This document shows positions 1-36,220 of a DNA stretch of 36,344 nt, piece after piece. The stretch's first letter is position 1, and each line of letters opens with the position of its first letter. This DNA is from a virus. Taxonomy: Duplodnaviria; Caudoviricetes. The notes under the pieces were generated by a model. It did not search any database. It was not told where the DNA came from and was given only the letters and a program-made list of their open reading frames with translations. Both the position numbers and the translations under genes were made by a program. The stretch is from IMG/VR virus record IMGVR_UViG_3300037424_001819, positions 1 to 36,344 of that record. One strand, 5' to 3'.

Positions 1-162
1 CCCCTGATGGAGATTATGCAAGGACACATCCCGGACGAGGAGAGCCCGGACGGTGATTGCTGGGAGACATGGGAAGAACTCAGCGAGGCGGCAGCCGATG
101 AAGTTTACGGTGCCATAGCGCATAACGCTTGCGGTAACCGGACCGGGAACGCGCAGCGTTAG
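1..162 (+). CDS. 3' end of hypothetical cassette ORF (partial); stop codon lies inside attC-like site 1
   Basis: Frame +1 open from base 1 (PLMEIMQGHIPDEE...NAQR) to TAG 160-162. Confidence 0.55.
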   Translation, partial: PLMEIMQGHIPDEESPDGDCWETWEELSEAAADEVYGAIAHNACGNRTGNAQR

Positions 163-189
163 CCGGTCCGGTTGACCAAATGGTTGGAA
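120..189 (-). other. attC-type recombination site 1
   Basis: Minus strand: R'' TTCCAAC, 5 nt, L'' GGTCAACC, central hairpin, L' GGTTACC, 6 nt, R' GTTATGC; one extra base in L''. Confidence 0.85.
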
Positions 190-217
190 CGCGATTACCA
201 CAGAAGGAGGGTTTACG

Positions 218-730
218 ATGATTGACCTGCAACCGTTTTGCGCTGACCCGGAGATTTACAGACGAGCCATCAACGCCCCGTGGTCCCGTGATGGATACAC
301 ATTCGCCACCGACGGCGCCTTGCTTATCCGGGTGCCGTACCGGGCAGAAGTAGAAGACCGTGAGGGTGCCCCCCAAGTCATGGGCAATCGTATCGGCGCG
401 ATCTTCGCCAGGGAGCCTGCCGACTGGTTTGATATTCCAGAATTTCCGCCGCCTGCCTCAGACGAGTGTAAGGAGTGTGAAGGTGATGGATGGGTGTCCC
501 CCCGCACTCAGTACAACGTGTACGACGACCAAGAGTGTAAAACTTGCGACGGCAAAGGTAGAGTGCAGCAAGATAAACCGGTTGAGATTGGTGGTTTTTA
601 TTTTGCGGACAGGCTGTTGACAATATTGCGCCAGTTGCCGAACGTGAAGATCGGACCTCTCGGCCCCAATGACGCGGCCCGAGTAACATTTGACGGCGGC
701 GACGGGTTGTTGATGCCACGGCGCAAGTAG
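218..730 (+). CDS. Cassette-borne hypothetical protein with CxxCxGxG zinc-finger insert and sliding-clamp-like segments
   Basis: RBS AAGGAGG; CKECEGDG...CKTCDGKG; ATDG and terminal GLLMP motifs reminiscent of DnaN. Confidence 0.75.
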   Translation: MIDLQPFCADPEIYRRAINAPWSRDGYTFATDGALLIRVPYRAEVEDREGAPQVMGNRIGAIFAREPADWFDIPEFPPPASDECKECEGDGWVSPRTQYNVYDDQECKTCDGKGRVQQDKPVEIGGFYFADRLLTILRQLPNVKIGPLGPNDAARVTFDGGDGLLMPRRK

Positions 731-744
731 CCCGCTGCCGAGCG

Positions 745-801
745 TTCCAACGCGGAACTATCCAGCCTGCGGAGCAGGTCTGGATGAGTGACTGATTAGC
801 C
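745..801 (-). other. attC-type recombination site 2 (degenerate R'')
   Basis: Minus strand: GGCTAAT, 5 nt, L'' ACTCATCC, hairpin, L' GGATAGT, 5 nt, R' GTTGGAA. Confidence 0.7.
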
Positions 802-846
802 CGCCTTGAGCAGCCACACGACTTAATGGACCGAGTACATAAAATT

Positions 847-1650
847 ATGACCCTCACCTGCCCCTGCTGCCACGCCAAATACCCCCTGGACGCCGCCCTC
901 GAAGGCGAGGCCGCCGGCGAGCTGCAGCTACTGCTCGCCCAGGCCGGCCCACTGGCCCGGCCGCTGGTCGCCTACCTCGGCATGTTCCGCAGCAAAACCC
1001 GGGCGCTGTCCTTCGATCGGGCCGTGAAGCTGGCCCGCGAAGTGCTGGAGCTCGGCGCGGATCCGCGCGCCCTGGTCACCGGCCTGGTCGAGACCGTCGA
1101 GGCGCTGCGCCGCAAGCGCGACCAGGGTGATATCCGGCCGCTCAAGGATCACCGGTATCTGTCCAGCGTGCTGCAGTCGGTCGGCGCCGTCGCGGCGGTG
1201 CCGGCGCCGGCGATCGACTTTGACGCCGTGCCCGGGCTGGGTACCGCGGTCAAGGGCAAGCGCCGCCAGGCGGTCGATCTGCTCGGCGAGTGGGGCGCCA
1301 CCTCACGGCTGCGCCAGGCGATCGCCATCGGCCTGATCGGCCTGGTCGCCATCGGCCGGCCCGGCACGCCGGCGGCCGACATGGTCCAGGCCAACGCCGA
1401 CCTGTGGCTGCACCTGCTGACCAAACAGGGGCTGGTCGAGTGCGACGAGGACATCGACCGGGTCTACAAGGCGTTTTCAAGCCTCGTTCAACAGTCGATG
1501 AAAGACTACCCCGAGCCGGCGGCGATCCTCCCCCACCTGCCCCGCCGCAAGCCGCAAGACCGCATTGCCGAGCCCGAACCGAGCGCCGAGCAGCGCGCTG
1601 CCGCCCTGGCGGCCGCTGCCGTCGCCCGTCAAGCCGTGGAGAGAATGTGA
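847..1650 (+). CDS. Mu-like phage hypothetical protein (N-terminal CPCC motif)
   Basis: MTLTCPCCHAKYPLDA...YLGMFR type seen before mor in Mu-like prophages; stop overlaps mor start. Confidence 0.75.
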   Translation: MTLTCPCCHAKYPLDAALEGEAAGELQLLLAQAGPLARPLVAYLGMFRSKTRALSFDRAVKLAREVLELGADPRALVTGLVETVEALRRKRDQGDIRPLKDHRYLSSVLQSVGAVAAVPAPAIDFDAVPGLGTAVKGKRRQAVDLLGEWGATSRLRQAIAIGLIGLVAIGRPGTPAADMVQANADLWLHLLTKQGLVECDEDIDRVYKAFSSLVQQSMKDYPEPAAILPHLPRRKPQDRIAEPEPSAEQRAAALAAAAVARQAVERM

Positions 1651-2006
1651 TGGACAACCTGGCCGAAGAACACGACGACAAGTATCCCGAAATTCTGGTC
1701 GACCTGCGCGACGGGCTGACCGAGATCCTCATCGAGGCCGGCGCCGACGCGGTCAAGGCCAAGGGGCTGGCCTTCGCCGCCGCCGAGCGCATCCGCAAGC
1801 GCTGGCAGGGCCTGGCCGTCTACATCCCCAAGGGGCGCGCCTGGGAGCTGACCCGGCGAGATTTCGAGATCTACCGCCGGTTCAACGGCGACAACCGGCA
1901 CCAGCTCTGCCGCGAGCACGACATCACCGAACAGCGGCTCTACCAGATCATCGCGCGGGTGCGCTCTGAGGAGATCGCCAGGCGGCAGTTGAGATTGTTC
2001 GATTGA
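1650..2006 (+). CDS. mor: Mor/C family transcription activator
   Basis: WQGLAVYIPKG...RDFEIYRRFNGDN...LYQII signature; position just before lysis/late genes. Confidence 0.9.
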   Translation: MDNLAEEHDDKYPEILVDLRDGLTEILIEAGADAVKAKGLAFAAAERIRKRWQGLAVYIPKGRAWELTRRDFEIYRRFNGDNRHQLCREHDITEQRLYQIIARVRSEEIARRQLRLFD

Positions 2007-26048: not shown

Positions 26049-26106
26049 CTTGGTTTGCCGGTGAAGCCCGACGCCGGTTTACGCTAAAATCCTTTAGTGG
26101 GCAGCA

Positions 26107-26153
26107 GTGCCAAACCGTGCGTTAGTTGGTGCCAAATCGCGCGGCGGGTTACA
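26107..26153 (+). mobile_element. Mu-type right end
   Basis: GTGCCAAACCG (26107) and GTGCCAAATCG (26129) 22 bp apart; terminal TTACA exactly where SfsA similarity stops. Confidence 0.75.
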
Positions 26154-26749
26154 CGCAGCAACCGGCCGTACTCGGGGTCGATGGCGTCGGCCGAGGTAAA
26201 GGCGGTCGCCTCACCGCGCTGCACAAGAAAGAAGATCACCGCCCGGTACCCTTCGGAGCAAGCCCGCATCAGCTCGCGCAGGTGTTTCTGGCCGCGGACG
26301 GTGACGGCATCGGGAAAGCAGGCGACGCCGGCGCCAGAAGTGAGAGTGACATTCTTCACCTCGACCAGCGCCCTCTCCCCGGCGCGCTCCAGCAGGAAGT
26401 CGATACGGCTGTCGTGGTAGCGGGACTCTGGGATAATGCGGCAGCCGGAAAGCTCCGCGATCGCGCCGTTTCTCAGCCCCTCCTCCACCACCCGGTTGGT
26501 GCGGTGGGTGTGGGTGTCGACCCAGTTCCCGTTCACCTCAATCAGCTCCAGAGTATAGCCGAGCTTACGCGCCGGGTTGCCGGCAACGGAGACGAGCACG
26601 CGATGGCCAGGGACGGCGCACTGCAGCATACTGCCGGTATTGGGGGTATGGGCGGTAACGAGGCGGCCGTCGGCCAGCTCCACATCGGCGAGAAAACGCT
26701 TGTAGCGGCGCAACAGACGCCCTTCCAACAGCGGGGAGGGGAGTCTCAT
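26154..26749 (-). pseudogene. sfsA: Host sugar fermentation stimulation protein A, 3'-truncated by phage end
   Basis: RYKRFLADV, HTPNTGSM, SRIDFLL, VEVKNVT, FPDAVTVRGQKHLREL, IDPEYGRLLR, then unrelated tail read from phage DNA. Confidence 0.88.
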
Positions 26750-29123: not shown

Positions 29124-30173
29124 TTATTCAGCCGCAGCAAAAGATAGTTCCTGGGCGTGCTGCTCGCTCACGAACGCGAAATCCTCTTCGCTCATGCTTT
29201 GCGAGTCGTAATACTCCAGGGCATCAGGATCGGCGACATAATCGACCCGGCCATGATGTTTCTCAACTATATTCCGGATGCGGGCCAGCTCCACGCTGAA
29301 GAACTCTTTGCGCAGATTGACCTTGTTGACCCGGTGCTGGTGCAATTGGTTGTGAAGAGCATTTTCGAGGGCCGGGGCATCGTCGCAGGAAATCATCATG
29401 TGGACATCGAAGGGGAACGGTACGGAGGCGTCGCCCAGTTCCTTGACCCGGTCCATCGGCTCCAGCCGGCGAGTCATGCCGACCTTGAACACGTCCTTGC
29501 CGAAAGACCCGATGTTGCTGATCACGTACACGTGGCCGGCCTTGGTCAATTCAGCCATGGATTTCGCACGCTGCAGCTTTGCCTCGGCTTCGGTCAGCAT
29601 CGTCCTTAAACGCTCAACCTCAACGTCGTGGTCGTCTTTGGCCCGCTTCAGTGCCACATTCAGCGCCTGCTCTATGGCGAGACGTTCATTTTCGATCCGC
29701 TTCAACTCTTGCTCTCTCTCTCGCTCAAGCCGCTGTTCCTCACGGATCTGCTCCTTGATCCTGGCCTGCTCCTGCCGAGCCAAATCCTTACGGACGATCT
29801 CCTGATATTCGGCTTTCAGTCGCTCGGCGACACTGGCCTTTTCTTCGTTGGGTATCTTGGTGCCGTTCTTTTCGATGAAAGAGATCAGCCCATCGGCATT
29901 CTTGTGAGACGTTGCAAAGTTGCTGGCCGTGAGTTTGGAAAGAATGAACTTGATGCCGTCGGAAAAGTATTTTTTGGAGACTTTTTCAAGATTGGATTGA
30001 CAGGTCTTTAAGGATTGGTCAAGGGTCTTTCCTACAGACTCTACTGTCTTGATTTTTTCCATGGCGGCTTTGTACCCTTTTTCGAACATCTCCTTTTCCT
30101 TTGCAAGGTTCGCATGCTCCTTGCCAAGACCGATGAGAATAACGATCAATGCGCCAATGATCAAATAAGACAT
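29124..30173 (-). CDS. Membrane-anchored coiled-coil protein with T5orf172/GIY-YIG-like domain (DUF4041-type)
   Basis: GHVYVISNIGSFG...KVGMTRRLEPMDRVKELGDASVPFPFDVH...RKEFF. Confidence 0.88.
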   Translation of the reverse strand: MSYLIIGALIVILIGLGKEHANLAKEKEMFEKGYKAAMEKIKTVESVGKTLDQSLKTCQSNLEKVSKKYFSDGIKFILSKLTASNFATSHKNADGLISFIEKNGTKIPNEEKASVAERLKAEYQEIVRKDLARQEQARIKEQIREEQRLEREREQELKRIENERLAIEQALNVALKRAKDDHDVEVERLRTMLTEAEAKLQRAKSMAELTKAGHVYVISNIGSFGKDVFKVGMTRRLEPMDRVKELGDASVPFPFDVHMMISCDDAPALENALHNQLHQHRVNKVNLRKEFFSVELARIRNIVEKHHGRVDYVADPDALEYYDSQSMSEEDFAFVSEQHAQELSFAAAE

Positions 30174-32136: not shown

Positions 32137-32288
32137 GAGTAGGCCCGCAAGGGCCGGCCCGGCGGGAGGGTGCCCCCCTCCACCACCCTCCCGCCGGGTG
32201 TTGCTTGTCTGAGGGGGGATTATGGGCGCAACCCGGCCCAGTTACCCGTTTATCACGGGTTTTGATGATGTCAAGGAGGCAGGGTGAA

Positions 32289-32609
32289 ATGACGCGGATT
32301 TGTGCGTGGTGTGACAAGGAGATGGGCGAGGCGGCGGGGCCGGCGCAGGAGGTGACGCACGGCATCTGCTGGCCGTGCATGTTCAAGCAGTCGCCGAGGG
32401 CGGCGCTGCGCTACGCGCTGAAGATCGCCGGGGAGAAAACGCAGGCTCTGCGCCTGGGGATGCTGCGCCGGCGGATTGCGCTTTTTCTTTATTGGCGGGA
32501 GGACCAGCCCGGTGTGTTGCTGCTGTTGTCGGTGGTGACGGCCGGGCTTTTTGTTTATGCGCTGCTGCTGGCCTGGTATCTGTTCGGCGGCTGGCCGTTC
32601 GGGAGGTGA
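32289..32609 (+). CDS. Zinc-finger plus TM hypothetical protein
   Basis: CAWC...THGICWPC; C-terminal hydrophobic helix. Confidence 0.6.
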   Translation: MTRICAWCDKEMGEAAGPAQEVTHGICWPCMFKQSPRAALRYALKIAGEKTQALRLGMLRRRIALFLYWREDQPGVLLLLSVVTAGLFVYALLLAWYLFGGWPFGR

Positions 32610-32613
32610 GGCG

Positions 32614-32760
32614 ATGCGTCTGGTGTGGGGTCTGCTGGGATTGGCGGCGGTGCTGATGCTGATGGGTCGGGCCGGGGAGAGCGACCGACGGGCGACCGAC
32701 GAGGCTCGTTACCGGGCGGCGCTGGCGCATTGCGACGCGGCGCGGATCAGCGAAGAATAG
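32614..32760 (+). CDS. Small membrane protein
   Basis: GGAGGTGAGG RBS; N-terminal hydrophobic helix. Confidence 0.5.
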   Translation: MRLVWGLLGLAAVLMLMGRAGESDRRATDEARYRAALAHCDAARISEE

Positions 32761-32864
32761 TTTCAGTTTCCCCGGGCAGGGGTCTGCAGCCCTGCCGGAA
32801 CGCCTCGCCGGCTGCCCGGGGAATCCTTTCAACCGAGGCGATCCACCCATGATGGAGGCGAATC

Positions 32865-33461
32865 ATGACCATGAAGTATCTCACCGAAACCGAAGAGAAG
32901 ATTTTGCGGCGCACCGTGAAGGAAATCAAGGGCCGGCGGGCGGAGCGCGACCGGGTGATCGTCGAGCTGCTGCTCGGCACCGGGCTGCGGGCGGCCGAGT
33001 TGGTGGGGCTGAACGTCGGCGACCTGCGCGGCAAGGAGAAGCTCTACGTGCGGCCGGAGATCGCCAAGGGGGGTAAGGGGCGCTTCGTGCCGGTGTCGGT
33101 CGACCTGCAGCGGCTGCTCAAGGGATTTTTCCGCGACAAGCTCGCCTGGGGCGAGAGCATTCGGGATGAGGCGCCGCTGTTCATGAGCCGCGAGAATAAC
33201 CGGCTGAGCAAGATCGCCCTGCAGAAGCTGGTCGCCCACTGGATGACCCGGGCGGGGCTGACGACGACCCTGGAGGGGCGGACGGTGGCGCTCTACGGCG
33301 TGCACAGCTGCAGGCACACCTTTGCCAAGCGGCTGCTGGAGCGCGGGGTGAAGTTGCCCACGGTGCAGAAGCTGCTCGGTCACGCCTCGCTCGCCTCGAC
33401 GGGGATCTACACGGAGGCCTCCTGGGAAGAGATGGTCGAGGCGGTGGAGGCCCGGGGATGA
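32865..33461 (+). CDS. Tyrosine recombinase, catalytic domain only (198 aa)
   Basis: TGLRAAEL, KGG, HSCRH, LGHAS, TGIY: complete R-K-H-R-H-Y set. Confidence 0.9.
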   Translation: MTMKYLTETEEKILRRTVKEIKGRRAERDRVIVELLLGTGLRAAELVGLNVGDLRGKEKLYVRPEIAKGGKGRFVPVSVDLQRLLKGFFRDKLAWGESIRDEAPLFMSRENNRLSKIALQKLVAHWMTRAGLTTTLEGRTVALYGVHSCRHTFAKRLLERGVKLPTVQKLLGHASLASTGIYTEASWEEMVEAVEARG

Positions 33462-33679
33462 GCACGCCGACGACGGATATCGGGGAGATCCTCGCCCGGG
33501 TGGAGGTCGGCATGGCCGGCAGTCGCGAGGCGGTGGTGATGAAGGAGTACATCGAGCACCTGACTTGGGGGCCGGTGATGATGGCCGGGAACAATGTGGT
33601 CGGCGAGAAGTGCCGGCACTGCGGGCTGCTGCGGCCGCACGGTCACACCGACTGGTGCCCGGCGCAGCGGGTGAAATAG
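33458..33679 (+). CDS. Hypothetical protein (CRHC...H...C)
   Basis: ATGA-coupled to recombinase. Confidence 0.55.
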   Translation: MSTPTTDIGEILARVEVGMAGSREAVVMKEYIEHLTWGPVMMAGNNVVGEKCRHCGLLRPHGHTDWCPAQRVK

Positions 33680-33693
33680 GAAGGAGCGAGGCG

Positions 33694-33870
33694 ATGAACT
33701 ATCCGAAGTTCAATGAAGGCGACAGGGTCAACCGCACCCGGCGGATGCTGCCGCGGACGGTTCAGGGCGTGGAGCGGGTGGCGGGGACGTACCGCTACTC
33801 TCTGCTGACCGAGGGCGGGGCCGTGGAGAAGGATGTCTTCGAGCGGGAACTGACGAGGTGCCACCGATGA
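33694..33870 (+). CDS. Small SH3/KOW-like hypothetical protein
   Basis: AAGGAG RBS; PKFNEGDRV. Confidence 0.5.
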   Translation: MNYPKFNEGDRVNRTRRMLPRTVQGVERVAGTYRYSLLTEGGAVEKDVFERELTRCHR

Positions 33871-34451
33871 GCGCGAGCGAGAAGCATTTCAACGCCGGCA
33901 ACGTCTTCGGCCGGGTGGTCGACGAGATCGAGCGCAAGACCAGCAACGGCGACAAGGAATTCATCTCCTTCCAGGTGAACGTGTCGGGCGGCAAGTGCGG
34001 GTCGGCCCGGGCCTACTGCCGGATGTGGGGCGCCGAGCGCTTCGAGCCGTTTCTGGCGGCGCTGCGCAAGAATCCCGATGTGAAGGTCTGGCTCAAGGGC
34101 TTCTTCGGCCAGTACTGGAACGAGCGCAACGAGGTGTTCAGCAACTTCACCTGTTTCGAGTGGCAGGAGCGCGACAGCGAGCCGCGGGCGGCCTTCATCC
34201 TCAAGGGGCTGGTCGAGGTGGCGCACCAGGTCAACAGCGGCCAGCGGTTGCTGCTGACGGTCAAGCGCGAGGGGCAGCAGGCGGAGAAGTTCGAGCTGTG
34301 GTGCCAGGCGGAGAAGCTGCTCGATGAGCCGGCGGCGGACAGCCTGGTGGAAGTCAAGGGGTACCTGCGGCAGGAGACGCCGGAAGACGAGTTCGGCGGC
34401 AGCACGGGGCCGGTGCGGGCGTATGTCGAGCAGCTGCGGATCCTGTCATGA
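33867..34451 (+). CDS. Putative tandem OB-fold ssDNA-binding protein
   Basis: NAGNVFGRV...CRMWG...VWLKG and second LKGLV...VEVKGYL repeat resembling SSB folds. Confidence 0.5.
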   Translation: MSASEKHFNAGNVFGRVVDEIERKTSNGDKEFISFQVNVSGGKCGSARAYCRMWGAERFEPFLAALRKNPDVKVWLKGFFGQYWNERNEVFSNFTCFEWQERDSEPRAAFILKGLVEVAHQVNSGQRLLLTVKREGQQAEKFELWCQAEKLLDEPAADSLVEVKGYLRQETPEDEFGGSTGPVRAYVEQLRILS

Positions 34452-34747
34452 CGGCGGCGGCGTGTTCGGTCTATTTTCACGGCAAGCTGGAGCAGGCCGA
34501 AAAGGTCTTCGCCGAGCGCTACGCGGCCACGGTCGGCCCGGCGCCGCAGCCGGCGCTGGCCTGGGCGGCGCAGGCGCAGCCGGAGCTGGCCCGGGCGTAC
34601 CGCGAGGCGCAGGCCAAGGCGGACGCTCTCTGGCTCAAAGGCGAGTGCAGCGAGGTCTTCAAGGGGGCGGTGATGGCGATGTTTCGGGCGCTGATCGAGA
34701 TCGGCCGGCTGTATGCGGCGGAGCTCGGCGGCAGGGAGGCGGCATAG
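34448..34747 (+). CDS. Hypothetical protein
   Basis: ATGA-coupled; ends REAA. Confidence 0.55.
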   Translation: MTAAACSVYFHGKLEQAEKVFAERYAATVGPAPQPALAWAAQAQPELARAYREAQAKADALWLKGECSEVFKGAVMAMFRALIEIGRLYAAELGGREAA

Positions 34748-34748
34748 T

Positions 34749-34955
34749 ATGGCCTTTGACGATACCAAATGCCCGTGCGGCGACAAGAAACCGGCCGGAA
34801 CGATGTTGTGCGAGCCGTGCGAGGCGTATCTGAGCGACCGGCGCGAGATCAGGGAGTATTTGGACACATCCCTCAACGTGGAGCTGCGGCAACACGCGGC
34901 GGTTACGCTGCTGACGCTGGCCAGAGGTCGCAAGCTTGCAAGGAGAGGGGTCTGA
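34749..34955 (+). CDS. Small zinc-finger protein
   Basis: CPCG...CEPC. Confidence 0.55.
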   Translation: MAFDDTKCPCGDKKPAGTMLCEPCEAYLSDRREIREYLDTSLNVELRQHAAVTLLTLARGRKLARRGV

Positions 34956-34957
34956 GT

Positions 34958-35116
34958 ATGGCGTGGAAGAAGGCGGCAAATCCCCGGCAGGTGGTCGTCT
35001 CGGCCCGGCTGACCCGGGAAGAGAAGCGGGCGCTGGACGCCTACGCAAAGAAACGGGGAGTGGCTCTCTCGGAGATCGTCCGCGAGCGGCTGCTCGGCAC
35101 GATGGTGGGGGCGTGA
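34958..35116 (+). CDS. Ribbon-helix-helix (CopG-like) protein
   Basis: VVSARLTREEKRALDAYAKKRGVALSEIVRE. Confidence 0.7.
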   Translation: MAWKKAANPRQVVVSARLTREEKRALDAYAKKRGVALSEIVRERLLGTMVGA

Positions 35117-35382
35117 TGGAATTAACGGTTTTCACCTGGTTGCTGGTTGCGGCCGCCCTTATCGGCACGTGGCTGAACGTTAAACAAGACCGGCGCTGCT
35201 TCTATATCTGGGCGGTGACGAACGCGGGCCTCTGCGGGGTCAACGCCATCTCCGGACAATGGGCGCAGGCTCTTCTCTTCGCGGTCTATTTCGCCCTCGC
35301 CCTGGTGGGCGTGCGCCAGTGGCAGAGGCGGCAGCAGGCAGGGGTGCGGGTGGTGATCAGGAAGGACGGCCGTAAGGTTTAA
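35116..35382 (+). CDS. Half-size PnuC-like membrane protein
   Basis: LIGTWLN...FYIWAVTN...GVRQW; three TM helices. Confidence 0.6.
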   Translation: MELTVFTWLLVAAALIGTWLNVKQDRRCFYIWAVTNAGLCGVNAISGQWAQALLFAVYFALALVGVRQWQRRQQAGVRVVIRKDGRKV

Positions 35383-35442: not shown

Positions 35443-35703
35443 ATGAAGAACGGGACGAAAAACAAGCTGCTGGATCTGAACAATCACCTTTTTGCCCAGC
35501 TGGAGCGGCTCGGCGAGGAGGACACGACGGGCGAGAAGCTCCAGGAGGAGATCGAGAGATCCCGGGCGGTCGGCGGGATCGCCCGCAACATCATCGACAA
35601 TGCCCGGCTGGCCCTCGATGCGCAGAAGGCCCTGGGCGATACCGTGCGCACCCTGCCGTTGATGATCGCCGAGCTAAAGGGCCGGAGCGGCGAAGCCGCG
35701 TAG
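35443..35703 (+). CDS. Phage hypothetical protein; C-terminus runs into attC-like site 3
   Basis: KNKLLDLNNHLFAQLERL...EIERSRAV; GGAGG RBS. Confidence 0.75.
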   Translation: MKNGTKNKLLDLNNHLFAQLERLGEEDTTGEKLQEEIERSRAVGGIARNIIDNARLALDAQKALGDTVRTLPLMIAELKGRSGEAA

Positions 35704-35728
35704 GTCCGCTTTGAGCGTTGTGTTCTGC
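35661..35728 (-). other. attC-type recombination site 3 (R' core is GAT)
   Basis: Minus strand: R'' GCAGAAC, 5 nt, L'' GCTCAAAG, hairpin, L' CTTTAGC, 5 nt, R' GATCATC. Confidence 0.75.
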
Positions 35729-35758: not shown

Positions 35759-36169
35759 ATGAAAGCATTGACGATTTGCCAGCCATACGCGGCCCTGATT
35801 GTGCGCGGCGACAAGCTGGTTGAGAACCGCGAGTGGCCGACGAATTACCGGGGGCGGCTGTTGATACACGCTGGCAAAAGCCGCCAATGGCTCGACGACG
35901 AAGACGAGCAGGAGTTTGCGGATCGCGGCGACCCGCTGGTGTTCGGTGCCGTGGTCGGAGAGGCTCGGCTGGCCGACGTGCTGCATATCGACCGCATTCG
36001 GCGCGGCGAGTACGACGCGAAGTATCCGTGGTTGAAGGACCATGCGCACACGAACGGCACGTGGTGCTGGGTGCTGGCCGACGTGCAGCGCTACGCGGCT
36101 CCGCTGACGTGGAAGGGTGCCCAAGGGCTGTGGGAGTTCCCCGACGCGGACTTGCCGCAGAACGACTGA
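35759..36169 (+). CDS. Cassette-borne ASCH domain protein
   Basis: MKALTICQPYAALIVRGDKLVENREW.TNYRGRLLIHAGK...KGAQGLW. Confidence 0.92.
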   Translation: MKALTICQPYAALIVRGDKLVENREWPTNYRGRLLIHAGKSRQWLDDEDEQEFADRGDPLVFGAVVGEARLADVLHIDRIRRGEYDAKYPWLKDHAHTNGTWCWVLADVQRYAAPLTWKGAQGLWEFPDADLPQND

Positions 36170-36220
36170 GGTCAAGGGCTCGGCGCTTTTGCCGAGTCCG
36201 CTTGCAGCGCCGGGTTCTGG
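36157..36220 (-). other. attC-type recombination site 4
   Basis: Minus strand: R'' CCAGAAC, 5 nt, L'' GCTGCAAG, hairpin, L' CTTGACC, 6 nt, R' GTTCTGC. Confidence 0.8.

Follow-up and report, generated by a model that had tools for sequence, protein, structure and literature searches.

The locus at the start of this phage record raises the question of whether a single open reading frame held between two imperfect palindromes is a mobile integron cassette, and of what could move it when the gene runs against the sites that bound it. The window analysed is the entire virus record of 36,344 bases, which is 94% complete with its gap lying inside the array of palindromes, and the phage is temperate. 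The answer developed here is that 126-750 is very probably an integron cassette which a temperate phage carries in its early operon, the gene being flipped and the cassette likely moved by an IntI from elsewhere. Coordinates of the features are collected in Table 1.

Table 1. Positions in the window of the two cassettes, their bounding sites and selected phage genes.
Feature	Position	Strand	Remarks
attC site 1	120..189	-	R'' 189-183, L'' with extra base, L', R' 126-120; 48.2 bits
Left crossover triplet AAC	124..126	+	in three other contexts (X2, X3, X6) the upstream neighbour ends just before
Putative mobile cassette (site 1 body, RBS, ORF, half core)	126..750		circle would close a 10-bp R-box stem
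AGGAGG, Shine-Dalgarno-like	205..210	+	precedes cassette ORF; read from sequence
Cassette ORF, 170 aa	218..730	+	DnaJ-like CxxCxGxG motifs
attC site 2	745..801	-	degenerate; last site before core genes; 20.7 bits, E 0.011
Right crossover triplet AAC	749..751	+	X2 diverges just after; X3 site 2 body has another neighbour just before
phrog_2161 family gene and Mor activator	826..2006	+	fixed phage genes downstream of array
198-aa tyrosine recombinase, catalytic domain only	32865..33461	+	not IntI
Site A, degenerate attC-like hairpin	35661..35728	-	left core ATC; missed by model at E<=5
Second cassette ORF, ASCH domain	35759..36169	+	between sites A and B
attC site B	36157..36220	-	24 bits, E 0.002

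The minus strand of site 1 has the layout that the earlier note had claimed for it, TTCCAAC-N5-GGTCAACC-hairpin-GGTTACC-N6-GTTATGC, with one extra base in L''. A strict search of the window for the attC layout returned this site as its single match, none of 60 Markov simulations of the window gave a site as strong, and the fold has a z score of about -5. A covariance model was built in-house (and is not that of IntegronFinder) from 49 host attC sites taken from bacterial arrays with canonical ORFs, in which covariation is far above that of shuffles. The model scores site 1 at 48.2 bits (E 8.7e-9) on the minus strand, with the top plus-strand match at 8.9 bits. On this analysis site 1 is a full attC with its top strand on minus, and the recombinogenic bottom strand would be the plus, mRNA-like strand. 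The second extrahelical base found just inside L'' is absent at its usual place in site 1; with 100 of 149 viral sites and 133 of 191 genome sites having it, this base is not universal, and the available text of PMC5027507 reports that attC sites tolerate losing a single extrahelical base.

Site 2 is a real attC in degenerate form, so the proposal that both palindromes are attC sites holds exactly for site 1 and with qualification for site 2, in which the L'-R' spacer is 5 nt long and ATT stands in place of GTT at 795-797. The 5-nt spacer recurs in 39 of 188 and 24 of 81 viral sites compared with 5 of 185 genome sites, and the ATT core is seen in no other scanned site. Site 2 occupies the attI position at the array head and is attC-like, and a partner end cognate to it was not found in the window. 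As had been claimed, the cassette ends at 183-192 and 742-751 form a 10-bp complement across the two sites; the corresponding values within sites 1 and 2 are 3 and 0. The triplets AAC at 124-126 and 749-751 are the G|TT of R' when read on the top strand. With sites 1 and 2, site B across the contig ends and no intI, the record has the make-up of a CALIN. An Rfam scan of 1-2500 returned no relevant match, and no RNA dataset was listed as carrying the sequence, a result without bearing on expression. In run X1 a contig reads one C more than the window after 120, and the upstream contig is deeper (22.4 versus 15.8), both of which could come from a second phage that branches at site 1.

Contigs from three other studies contain cassette DNA identical or near-identical to that of the window. 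The segment 124-751 is present with 0 differences in two overlapping contigs of X2, where the DNA differs on both sides and the left junction is supported by two contigs overlapping by 30 nt. X3 carries 124-568 with 0 differences behind a different upstream neighbour, and also the body of site 2 behind a different neighbour that ends at 749. X6 carries 124-188 with 1 difference behind a third upstream neighbour, and X4 carries 484-731 with 0 differences. Five loose ends mark the cassette or site edges, and all are at the AAC triplets: three at 124 (one per run), one at 749 and one at 751. The other-study runs leave 1-74 uncovered and, in this comparison of junctions, also 785-840. The variation is bounded at AAC/G|TT as the earlier note had anticipated. 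The bond inside the triplet is below the resolution of contig junctions, and its placement is taken from established IntI chemistry. Beyond 751 the X2 DNA is A+T-rich, forms no hairpin and by eye resembles an attI position. In one contig of X2 a homologue of the ORF goes with a different site body, broken near the right core, and a viral locus (L463) encodes a homologue of 36% identity whose core ends are the same and whose body differs. Neither a circle joint nor an empty-site joint was present in the contigs of five runs, an assembly form that drops rare variants, and a search for gain or loss at the exact locus in viral relatives (five for the downstream ORF, one for the cassette ORF) yielded a single weak site. 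Judged on these sequence comparisons, 126-750 truly is an integron-type cassette, it has moved recently, and its layout is flipped and adapted to the phage. Those refuting conditions of the earlier note that lend themselves to computation all left its interpretation standing: the covariance model supports site 1 on the predicted strand, relatives vary at the stated points, and flipped sites of another phage, PH101, recombined with IntI1 in a published assay.

The cassette ORF lies on the plus strand and the attC top strand on minus, confirming that the gene is antisense to attC; it is accordingly not an ORF of the attC top strand that a Pc promoter could express. The predicted structure of the 170-aa protein has a pLDDT of 85.6 and aligns with domains II-III of the DnaN sliding clamp (Z 10.7, rmsd 3.2 over 130 residues), and Foldseek gave only weak matches, none at E<=0.001. 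The model predicts a sliding-clamp-like fold (DnaN domains II-III) with a zinc-finger insert, and the protein is a possible clamp mimic. Members of the ORF family are ordinary phage early genes. Sites lie within about 100 nt in five of the 92 loci scanned (105 less 13 near-identical ones), all five of them flipped, and the closest full-context relatives (56%) have no sites. Because the family is mostly unflanked elsewhere and is enclosed by sites in 5/92 loci, the distribution suggests that resident phage genes may be recruited into cassettes. In the leftward operon of another phage (L381/L461, 449-1564) there is a flipped array, and the homologue of the window ORF in that phage is not in a cassette.

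Downstream of site 2 the record encodes, in order, the phrog_2161 gene, Mor, lysis genes and Mu-like head genes. The late genes are Mu-like, with both Mor and gp27-type head genes present, and the record also encodes a serine integrase and a repressor; PF09299 and PF02914 (Mu transposase) were unmatched in the record, where control searches were equally silent. The label of Mu-like phage given in the earlier note thus fits the late genes, and the record is better described as a temperate phage with Mu-like late genes. The far end of the window contains a Dam-type methylase, a partial sfsA, the serine integrase, the repressor and an early operon with the 198-aa tyrosine recombinase. The sfsA gene (26084-26749, minus strand) has a truncated-looking C terminus and adjoins the serine integrase, and may mark the integration site. 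A gene with a T5orf172/MUG113 domain (29124-30173, minus strand) is situated in a low-GC stretch between integrase and repressor and is a possible moron. Related temperate phages retain, in their early operons, a family of catalytic-domain-only tyrosine recombinases of about 195 aa (107 proteins at E<=1e-20).

The early operon with the tyrosine recombinase terminates in a second cassette composed of site A, an ASCH gene and site B, and the picture of a single cassette was therefore too small. An ORF upstream of site A (35443-35703) has its stop codon inside that site, and the right arm of site A and the left arm of site B form a 14-bp complement. Beyond the contig ends the array probably runs on into position 1, and the contig looks circularly permuted. 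The ATC core of site A was considered as a GWT founder insertion at the array end, which is unsupported, as an ATC core occurs in one of 188 viral and one of 185 genome sites.

A site pattern seeded on site 1 recovered 89 viral loci and, from a partial genome scan, 128 genome loci, and the fractions that follow are biased by this seeding. The sites in the viral loci share one orientation in 170 of 172 cases. Perfect 4-base pairing across adjacent sites occurs in 43 of 75 pairs, nine of which come from a canonical control locus (L075), with 20 and 16 for the pairings within sites and 20% in the permutation. Among 66 phage intervals, counted with 2/152 ORFs left out, PHROG matches number 22, all on the flipped strand and none on the canonical one. 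A test for ORFs whose stop codon lies at the core classed, of 159 viral sites, 78 as flipped-only, 16 as canonical-only, 26 as both and 39 as neither, and the same test of 191 genome sites gave 15, 74, 18 and 84, respectively; the genome set took in one viral locus (L230) and the viral set the canonical control, and both weaken the contrast. The gene caller misclassed some loci (L237, L226 and L324), and orientation calls from 1.5-kb host flanks were dropped as too crude. Ribosome-binding site and start codon lie within the site itself in 11 of 149 viral sites. The cargo with annotation (22 matches) includes seven DNA methyltransferases together with Mom-like, TGT-like, DHH and exonuclease genes, and a Lar-like gene is also found as cargo. 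Cultured phages gave no useful match to site 1.

Exchange of cassettes between phages is also apparent in this collection. Three more cassette pairs, of 834, 370 and 368 nt, are common to different phages exactly from AAC to AAC. Across 149 viral sites, four pairs are alike in the body and right flank with a different left flank, and the reverse arrangement occurs 0 times. Eight viral site pairs, forming about four groups, are alike in the right flank only and break at the other core; in the two that were checked the likeness ends after 45-111 nt, and from these short shared stretches a second route of exchange exists. The available text of PMC5027507 places top-strand recombination at the other core, and the joins at the second core suggest exchange through that reaction. 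At three viral sites (L036:4440, L058:460 and L073:2997, coordinates as oriented for this comparison) site bodies that are unrelated meet one and the same right flank, and the join is precisely at the second core.

The match of the window record to the IntI profile TIGR02249 is far below the cut-off. The statement that intI and attI are missing therefore stands for this record, at 94% completeness, and fails for the system, since many related phages carry both. IntI scores over the cut-off in five of 50 viral records (39 of the 89 loci being left out), including two of 13 near-complete ones. One of the five belongs to a canonical host-type array, and the other four lie inside early operons just past a flipped array, each intI positioned behind a half site that closes the last cassette at AAC. 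Relatives of the viral IntI were taken as the best 80 of 276, which biases the fractions, and loci that were duplicates, had short flanks or had no full intI ORF (six loci) were set aside, leaving 47 distinct phage IntI loci with more than 1.5 kb upstream. Sites of attC type occur upstream in 31 of these, and in all 31 the attC top strand is opposite intI, which is canonical relative to intI; upstream genes are co-directional with intI in 29. None of these 31 loci has intI on the same strand as attC, the arrangement of an inverted-integrase integron. An attI-like motif lies 5' of intI in 29 of 47 main-branch loci versus 10 of 190 control windows, at a distance of about 100-240 nt, and in these intI-bearing phages the 3' end of the early operon holds intI and the attI-like site, in the canonical arrangement with attC.

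A tree of 65 viral and 55 genome IntI proteins, made by a quick method with biased sampling and without L348 (a duplicate), L351 and short proteins, gathers 56 viral and two genome proteins in one branch (SH-aLRT 99), and nine viral proteins fall elsewhere. Both genome proteins on the main viral branch belong to prophages with flipped arrays. Two bacterial prophages, L379 (G058:C52) and L380 (G311:C13), each hold a complete flipped integron made up, in order, of array, attI-like site and intI, followed by the prophage integrase. IntI is over the cut-off in 32 of 50 genomes with the site pattern (78 of the 128 genome loci being left out), which makes its supply in trans plausible. Among cultured phages, the relatives of the phage IntI are all below 60% (nine records). 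One phage locus, L377 (KX853513, 4680-8813), has an IntI-like gene annotated as xerD followed by four weak, long attC-like matches on the same strand as the ORFs, and is a different, canonical-ORF phage array.

In established integron biology, as set out in the available text of PMC5027507, IntI recombines the folded bottom strand within the AAC of R'. At this locus an IntI acting in trans, whether of host origin or encoded by another phage, would bind the folded plus (mRNA-like) strand and cut at AA|C, at 125/126 and 750/751, releasing 126-750 as a circle whose two ends would pair over 10 bp. The circle would then enter attI or attC in the array of another phage, where transcription of the gene would start at the phage early promoter, not at an integron Pc, and translation would use the RBS that the cassette brings along. 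With the flip, incoming cassettes would be oriented with phage transcription, towards attI, and the phage and host cassette pools would remain mutually silent. The polarity of the phage arrays may follow from the position of intI and attI at the 3' end of the operon, may reflect insulation against host cassettes or may depend on which strand is single-stranded in replication or transcription; in the part of PMC5371416 available, excision rates depend on strand position in replication.

Other explanations attribute the hairpins to another enzyme or to none. It is unlikely that the 198-aa tyrosine recombinase of the phage, and not IntI, acts on them. The gene for this protein shares the early operon, about 2.2 kb before site A, and of nine viral loci that encode close relatives (56-83%), three have flipped sites, mostly weak ones, no more than 8 kb away, but the other six have no site within that distance and include L487, which is 79% identical to window 32288-35364. 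The protein has neither the N-terminal SAM-like domain nor the insertion of IntI and never adjoins a site, whereas phage intI does adjoin an attI-like site, and the window sites match the IntI-linked host attCs of the host-built model. An enzyme-free account, in which the hairpins are conserved boundaries for homologous or illegitimate module swaps, is very improbable. The sites do resemble one another, some of the exchanges have their break at the right core or lose likeness gradually further along, and annealing proteins occur in such phages (Sak4-like in L232); however, the junctions are at AAC on the very edge of the site, with fewer than 8 nt common beyond in eight of nine right-sharing pairs and 14 nt in one. 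Homologous exchange would not select cross-site complementary cassette ends, and the arrays are accompanied by attI-like half sites and intI.

A cassette that was once mobile and is now stranded, after inverted capture from a bacterial integron, would explain the degenerate state of sites 2 and A and the lack of IntI in the record, and backward cassette insertion by top-strand recombination occurs at a low rate according to the text available from PMC5027507. Such an insertion would invert ORF and attC together, though, so that by itself it should not put a gene on the strand opposite its attC; copies of the cassette beside other neighbours are 100% identical, the cargo family is phage-type, and flipped sites are the majority in viral records, so that a cassette no longer shuffled among phages has very little likelihood. 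That the palindromes are RNA hairpins, acting as terminators or processing signals between phage genes, is scarcely credible. They fold well, sit between genes and in 11/149 viral sites include an RBS and start codon, and a secondary effect of the hairpins on translation may exist, but no T-tract terminator was called at site 1 or 2, and an RNA role leaves the spacer lengths, the extra L'' base, the AAC junctions and the IntI linkage unexplained. The exact AAC junctions already largely refute it.

Movement of a flipped cassette by IntI would have consequences beyond this record: integron integrases are likely the means by which phages exchange early genes of their own. According to the available text of PMC5027507, the strand selectivity of attC has the textbook purpose of bringing in a promoterless gene so that it faces the way Pc reads; here the same attC chemistry serves the opposite gene polarity across many phages, which would make integrons also a phage tool. 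It supplies an exact mechanism by which early-gene regions vary in many environmental temperate phages, and it bears on how cassettes are made, as the family of this cassette is mostly unflanked in other phages. The methyltransferases, Mom-like and TGT-like enzymes among the 22 annotated matches, plus the Lar-like gene, suggest that the flipped cassettes are a counter-defence library. A wider proposition, to which we give slightly less than even credence, is that temperate phages run an integron system of their own, with a phage IntI lineage and conserved attI, and a separate pool of flipped cassettes that is formed by attC sites enclosing resident early genes, is rich in DNA-modification and anti-restriction genes, is common to phages without intI and is insulated from host integrons by strand. 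If so, the phage pool would be a counter-defence mirror of the anti-phage cassette arrays of hosts, and the phage system a place to watch cassette birth.

Phage attC clusters are already in print, and the ORF-antisense flip appears undescribed in the literature found: no paper located, in a search that mostly did not cover subscription journals, states the flip, a phage IntI branch or a phage attI, and the accessible parts of PMC13366799 and PMC13323075 do not describe the flipped phage layout. The closest precedent is the set of phage CALINs of Qi et al. 2023 (PMC9892861), which in the available text have methyltransferase cargo and sites on which IntI1 is active in five of six cases. Like the window, these are attC clusters without intI, and PH101 and MW202573 share the flipped layout. 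That text calls the PH101 cassettes "typical" and states no ORF-antisense layout, phage IntI branch or phage attI; it is silent on the flip, and the figures and Dryad annotation file of the paper may draw flipped arrows. It reports that attC1 and attC2 of PH101 recombined with IntI1 at attI1, bottom strand above top. Their published bottom strands fall on the coding strand of the PH101 genes, and attC1 has the 5-nt spacer; on this re-reading, flipped sites already work with IntI1. Re-checking the published phage CALINs with the model showed PH101 and MW202573 to be flipped, TJE1 canonical and P12002L without a match; the two flipped ones correspond to KR534323 74500-80000 (L561) and MW202573 300-6000 (L560). 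Phage arrays are thus not uniformly flipped, TJE1 being canonical.

Sedentary chromosomal integrons share with the phage arrays the attC family and the cross-site complementarity of cassette ends, and their intI-attI-attC geometry matches that of the IntI-bearing phages. The phage arrays differ in having cassette ORFs antisense to attC and directed along intI, a 5-nt spacer that is common, start codons that are sometimes in the site and phage early-gene cargo. In inverted-integrase integrons, as presented in the accessible part of PMC13323075, intI shares a strand with the cassette ORFs as it does in the phage relatives, but there intI is inverted with respect to attC, whereas in the phage relatives intI is canonical and the ORFs alone are flipped. 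The SALINs and attG insertions of Loot et al. (bioRxiv 10.1101/2022.09.11.507474), to judge from the available text, place cassettes away from intI, which fits an IntI acting in trans; those cassettes are ordinary and chromosomal, whereas that of the window is flipped and resides in a phage.
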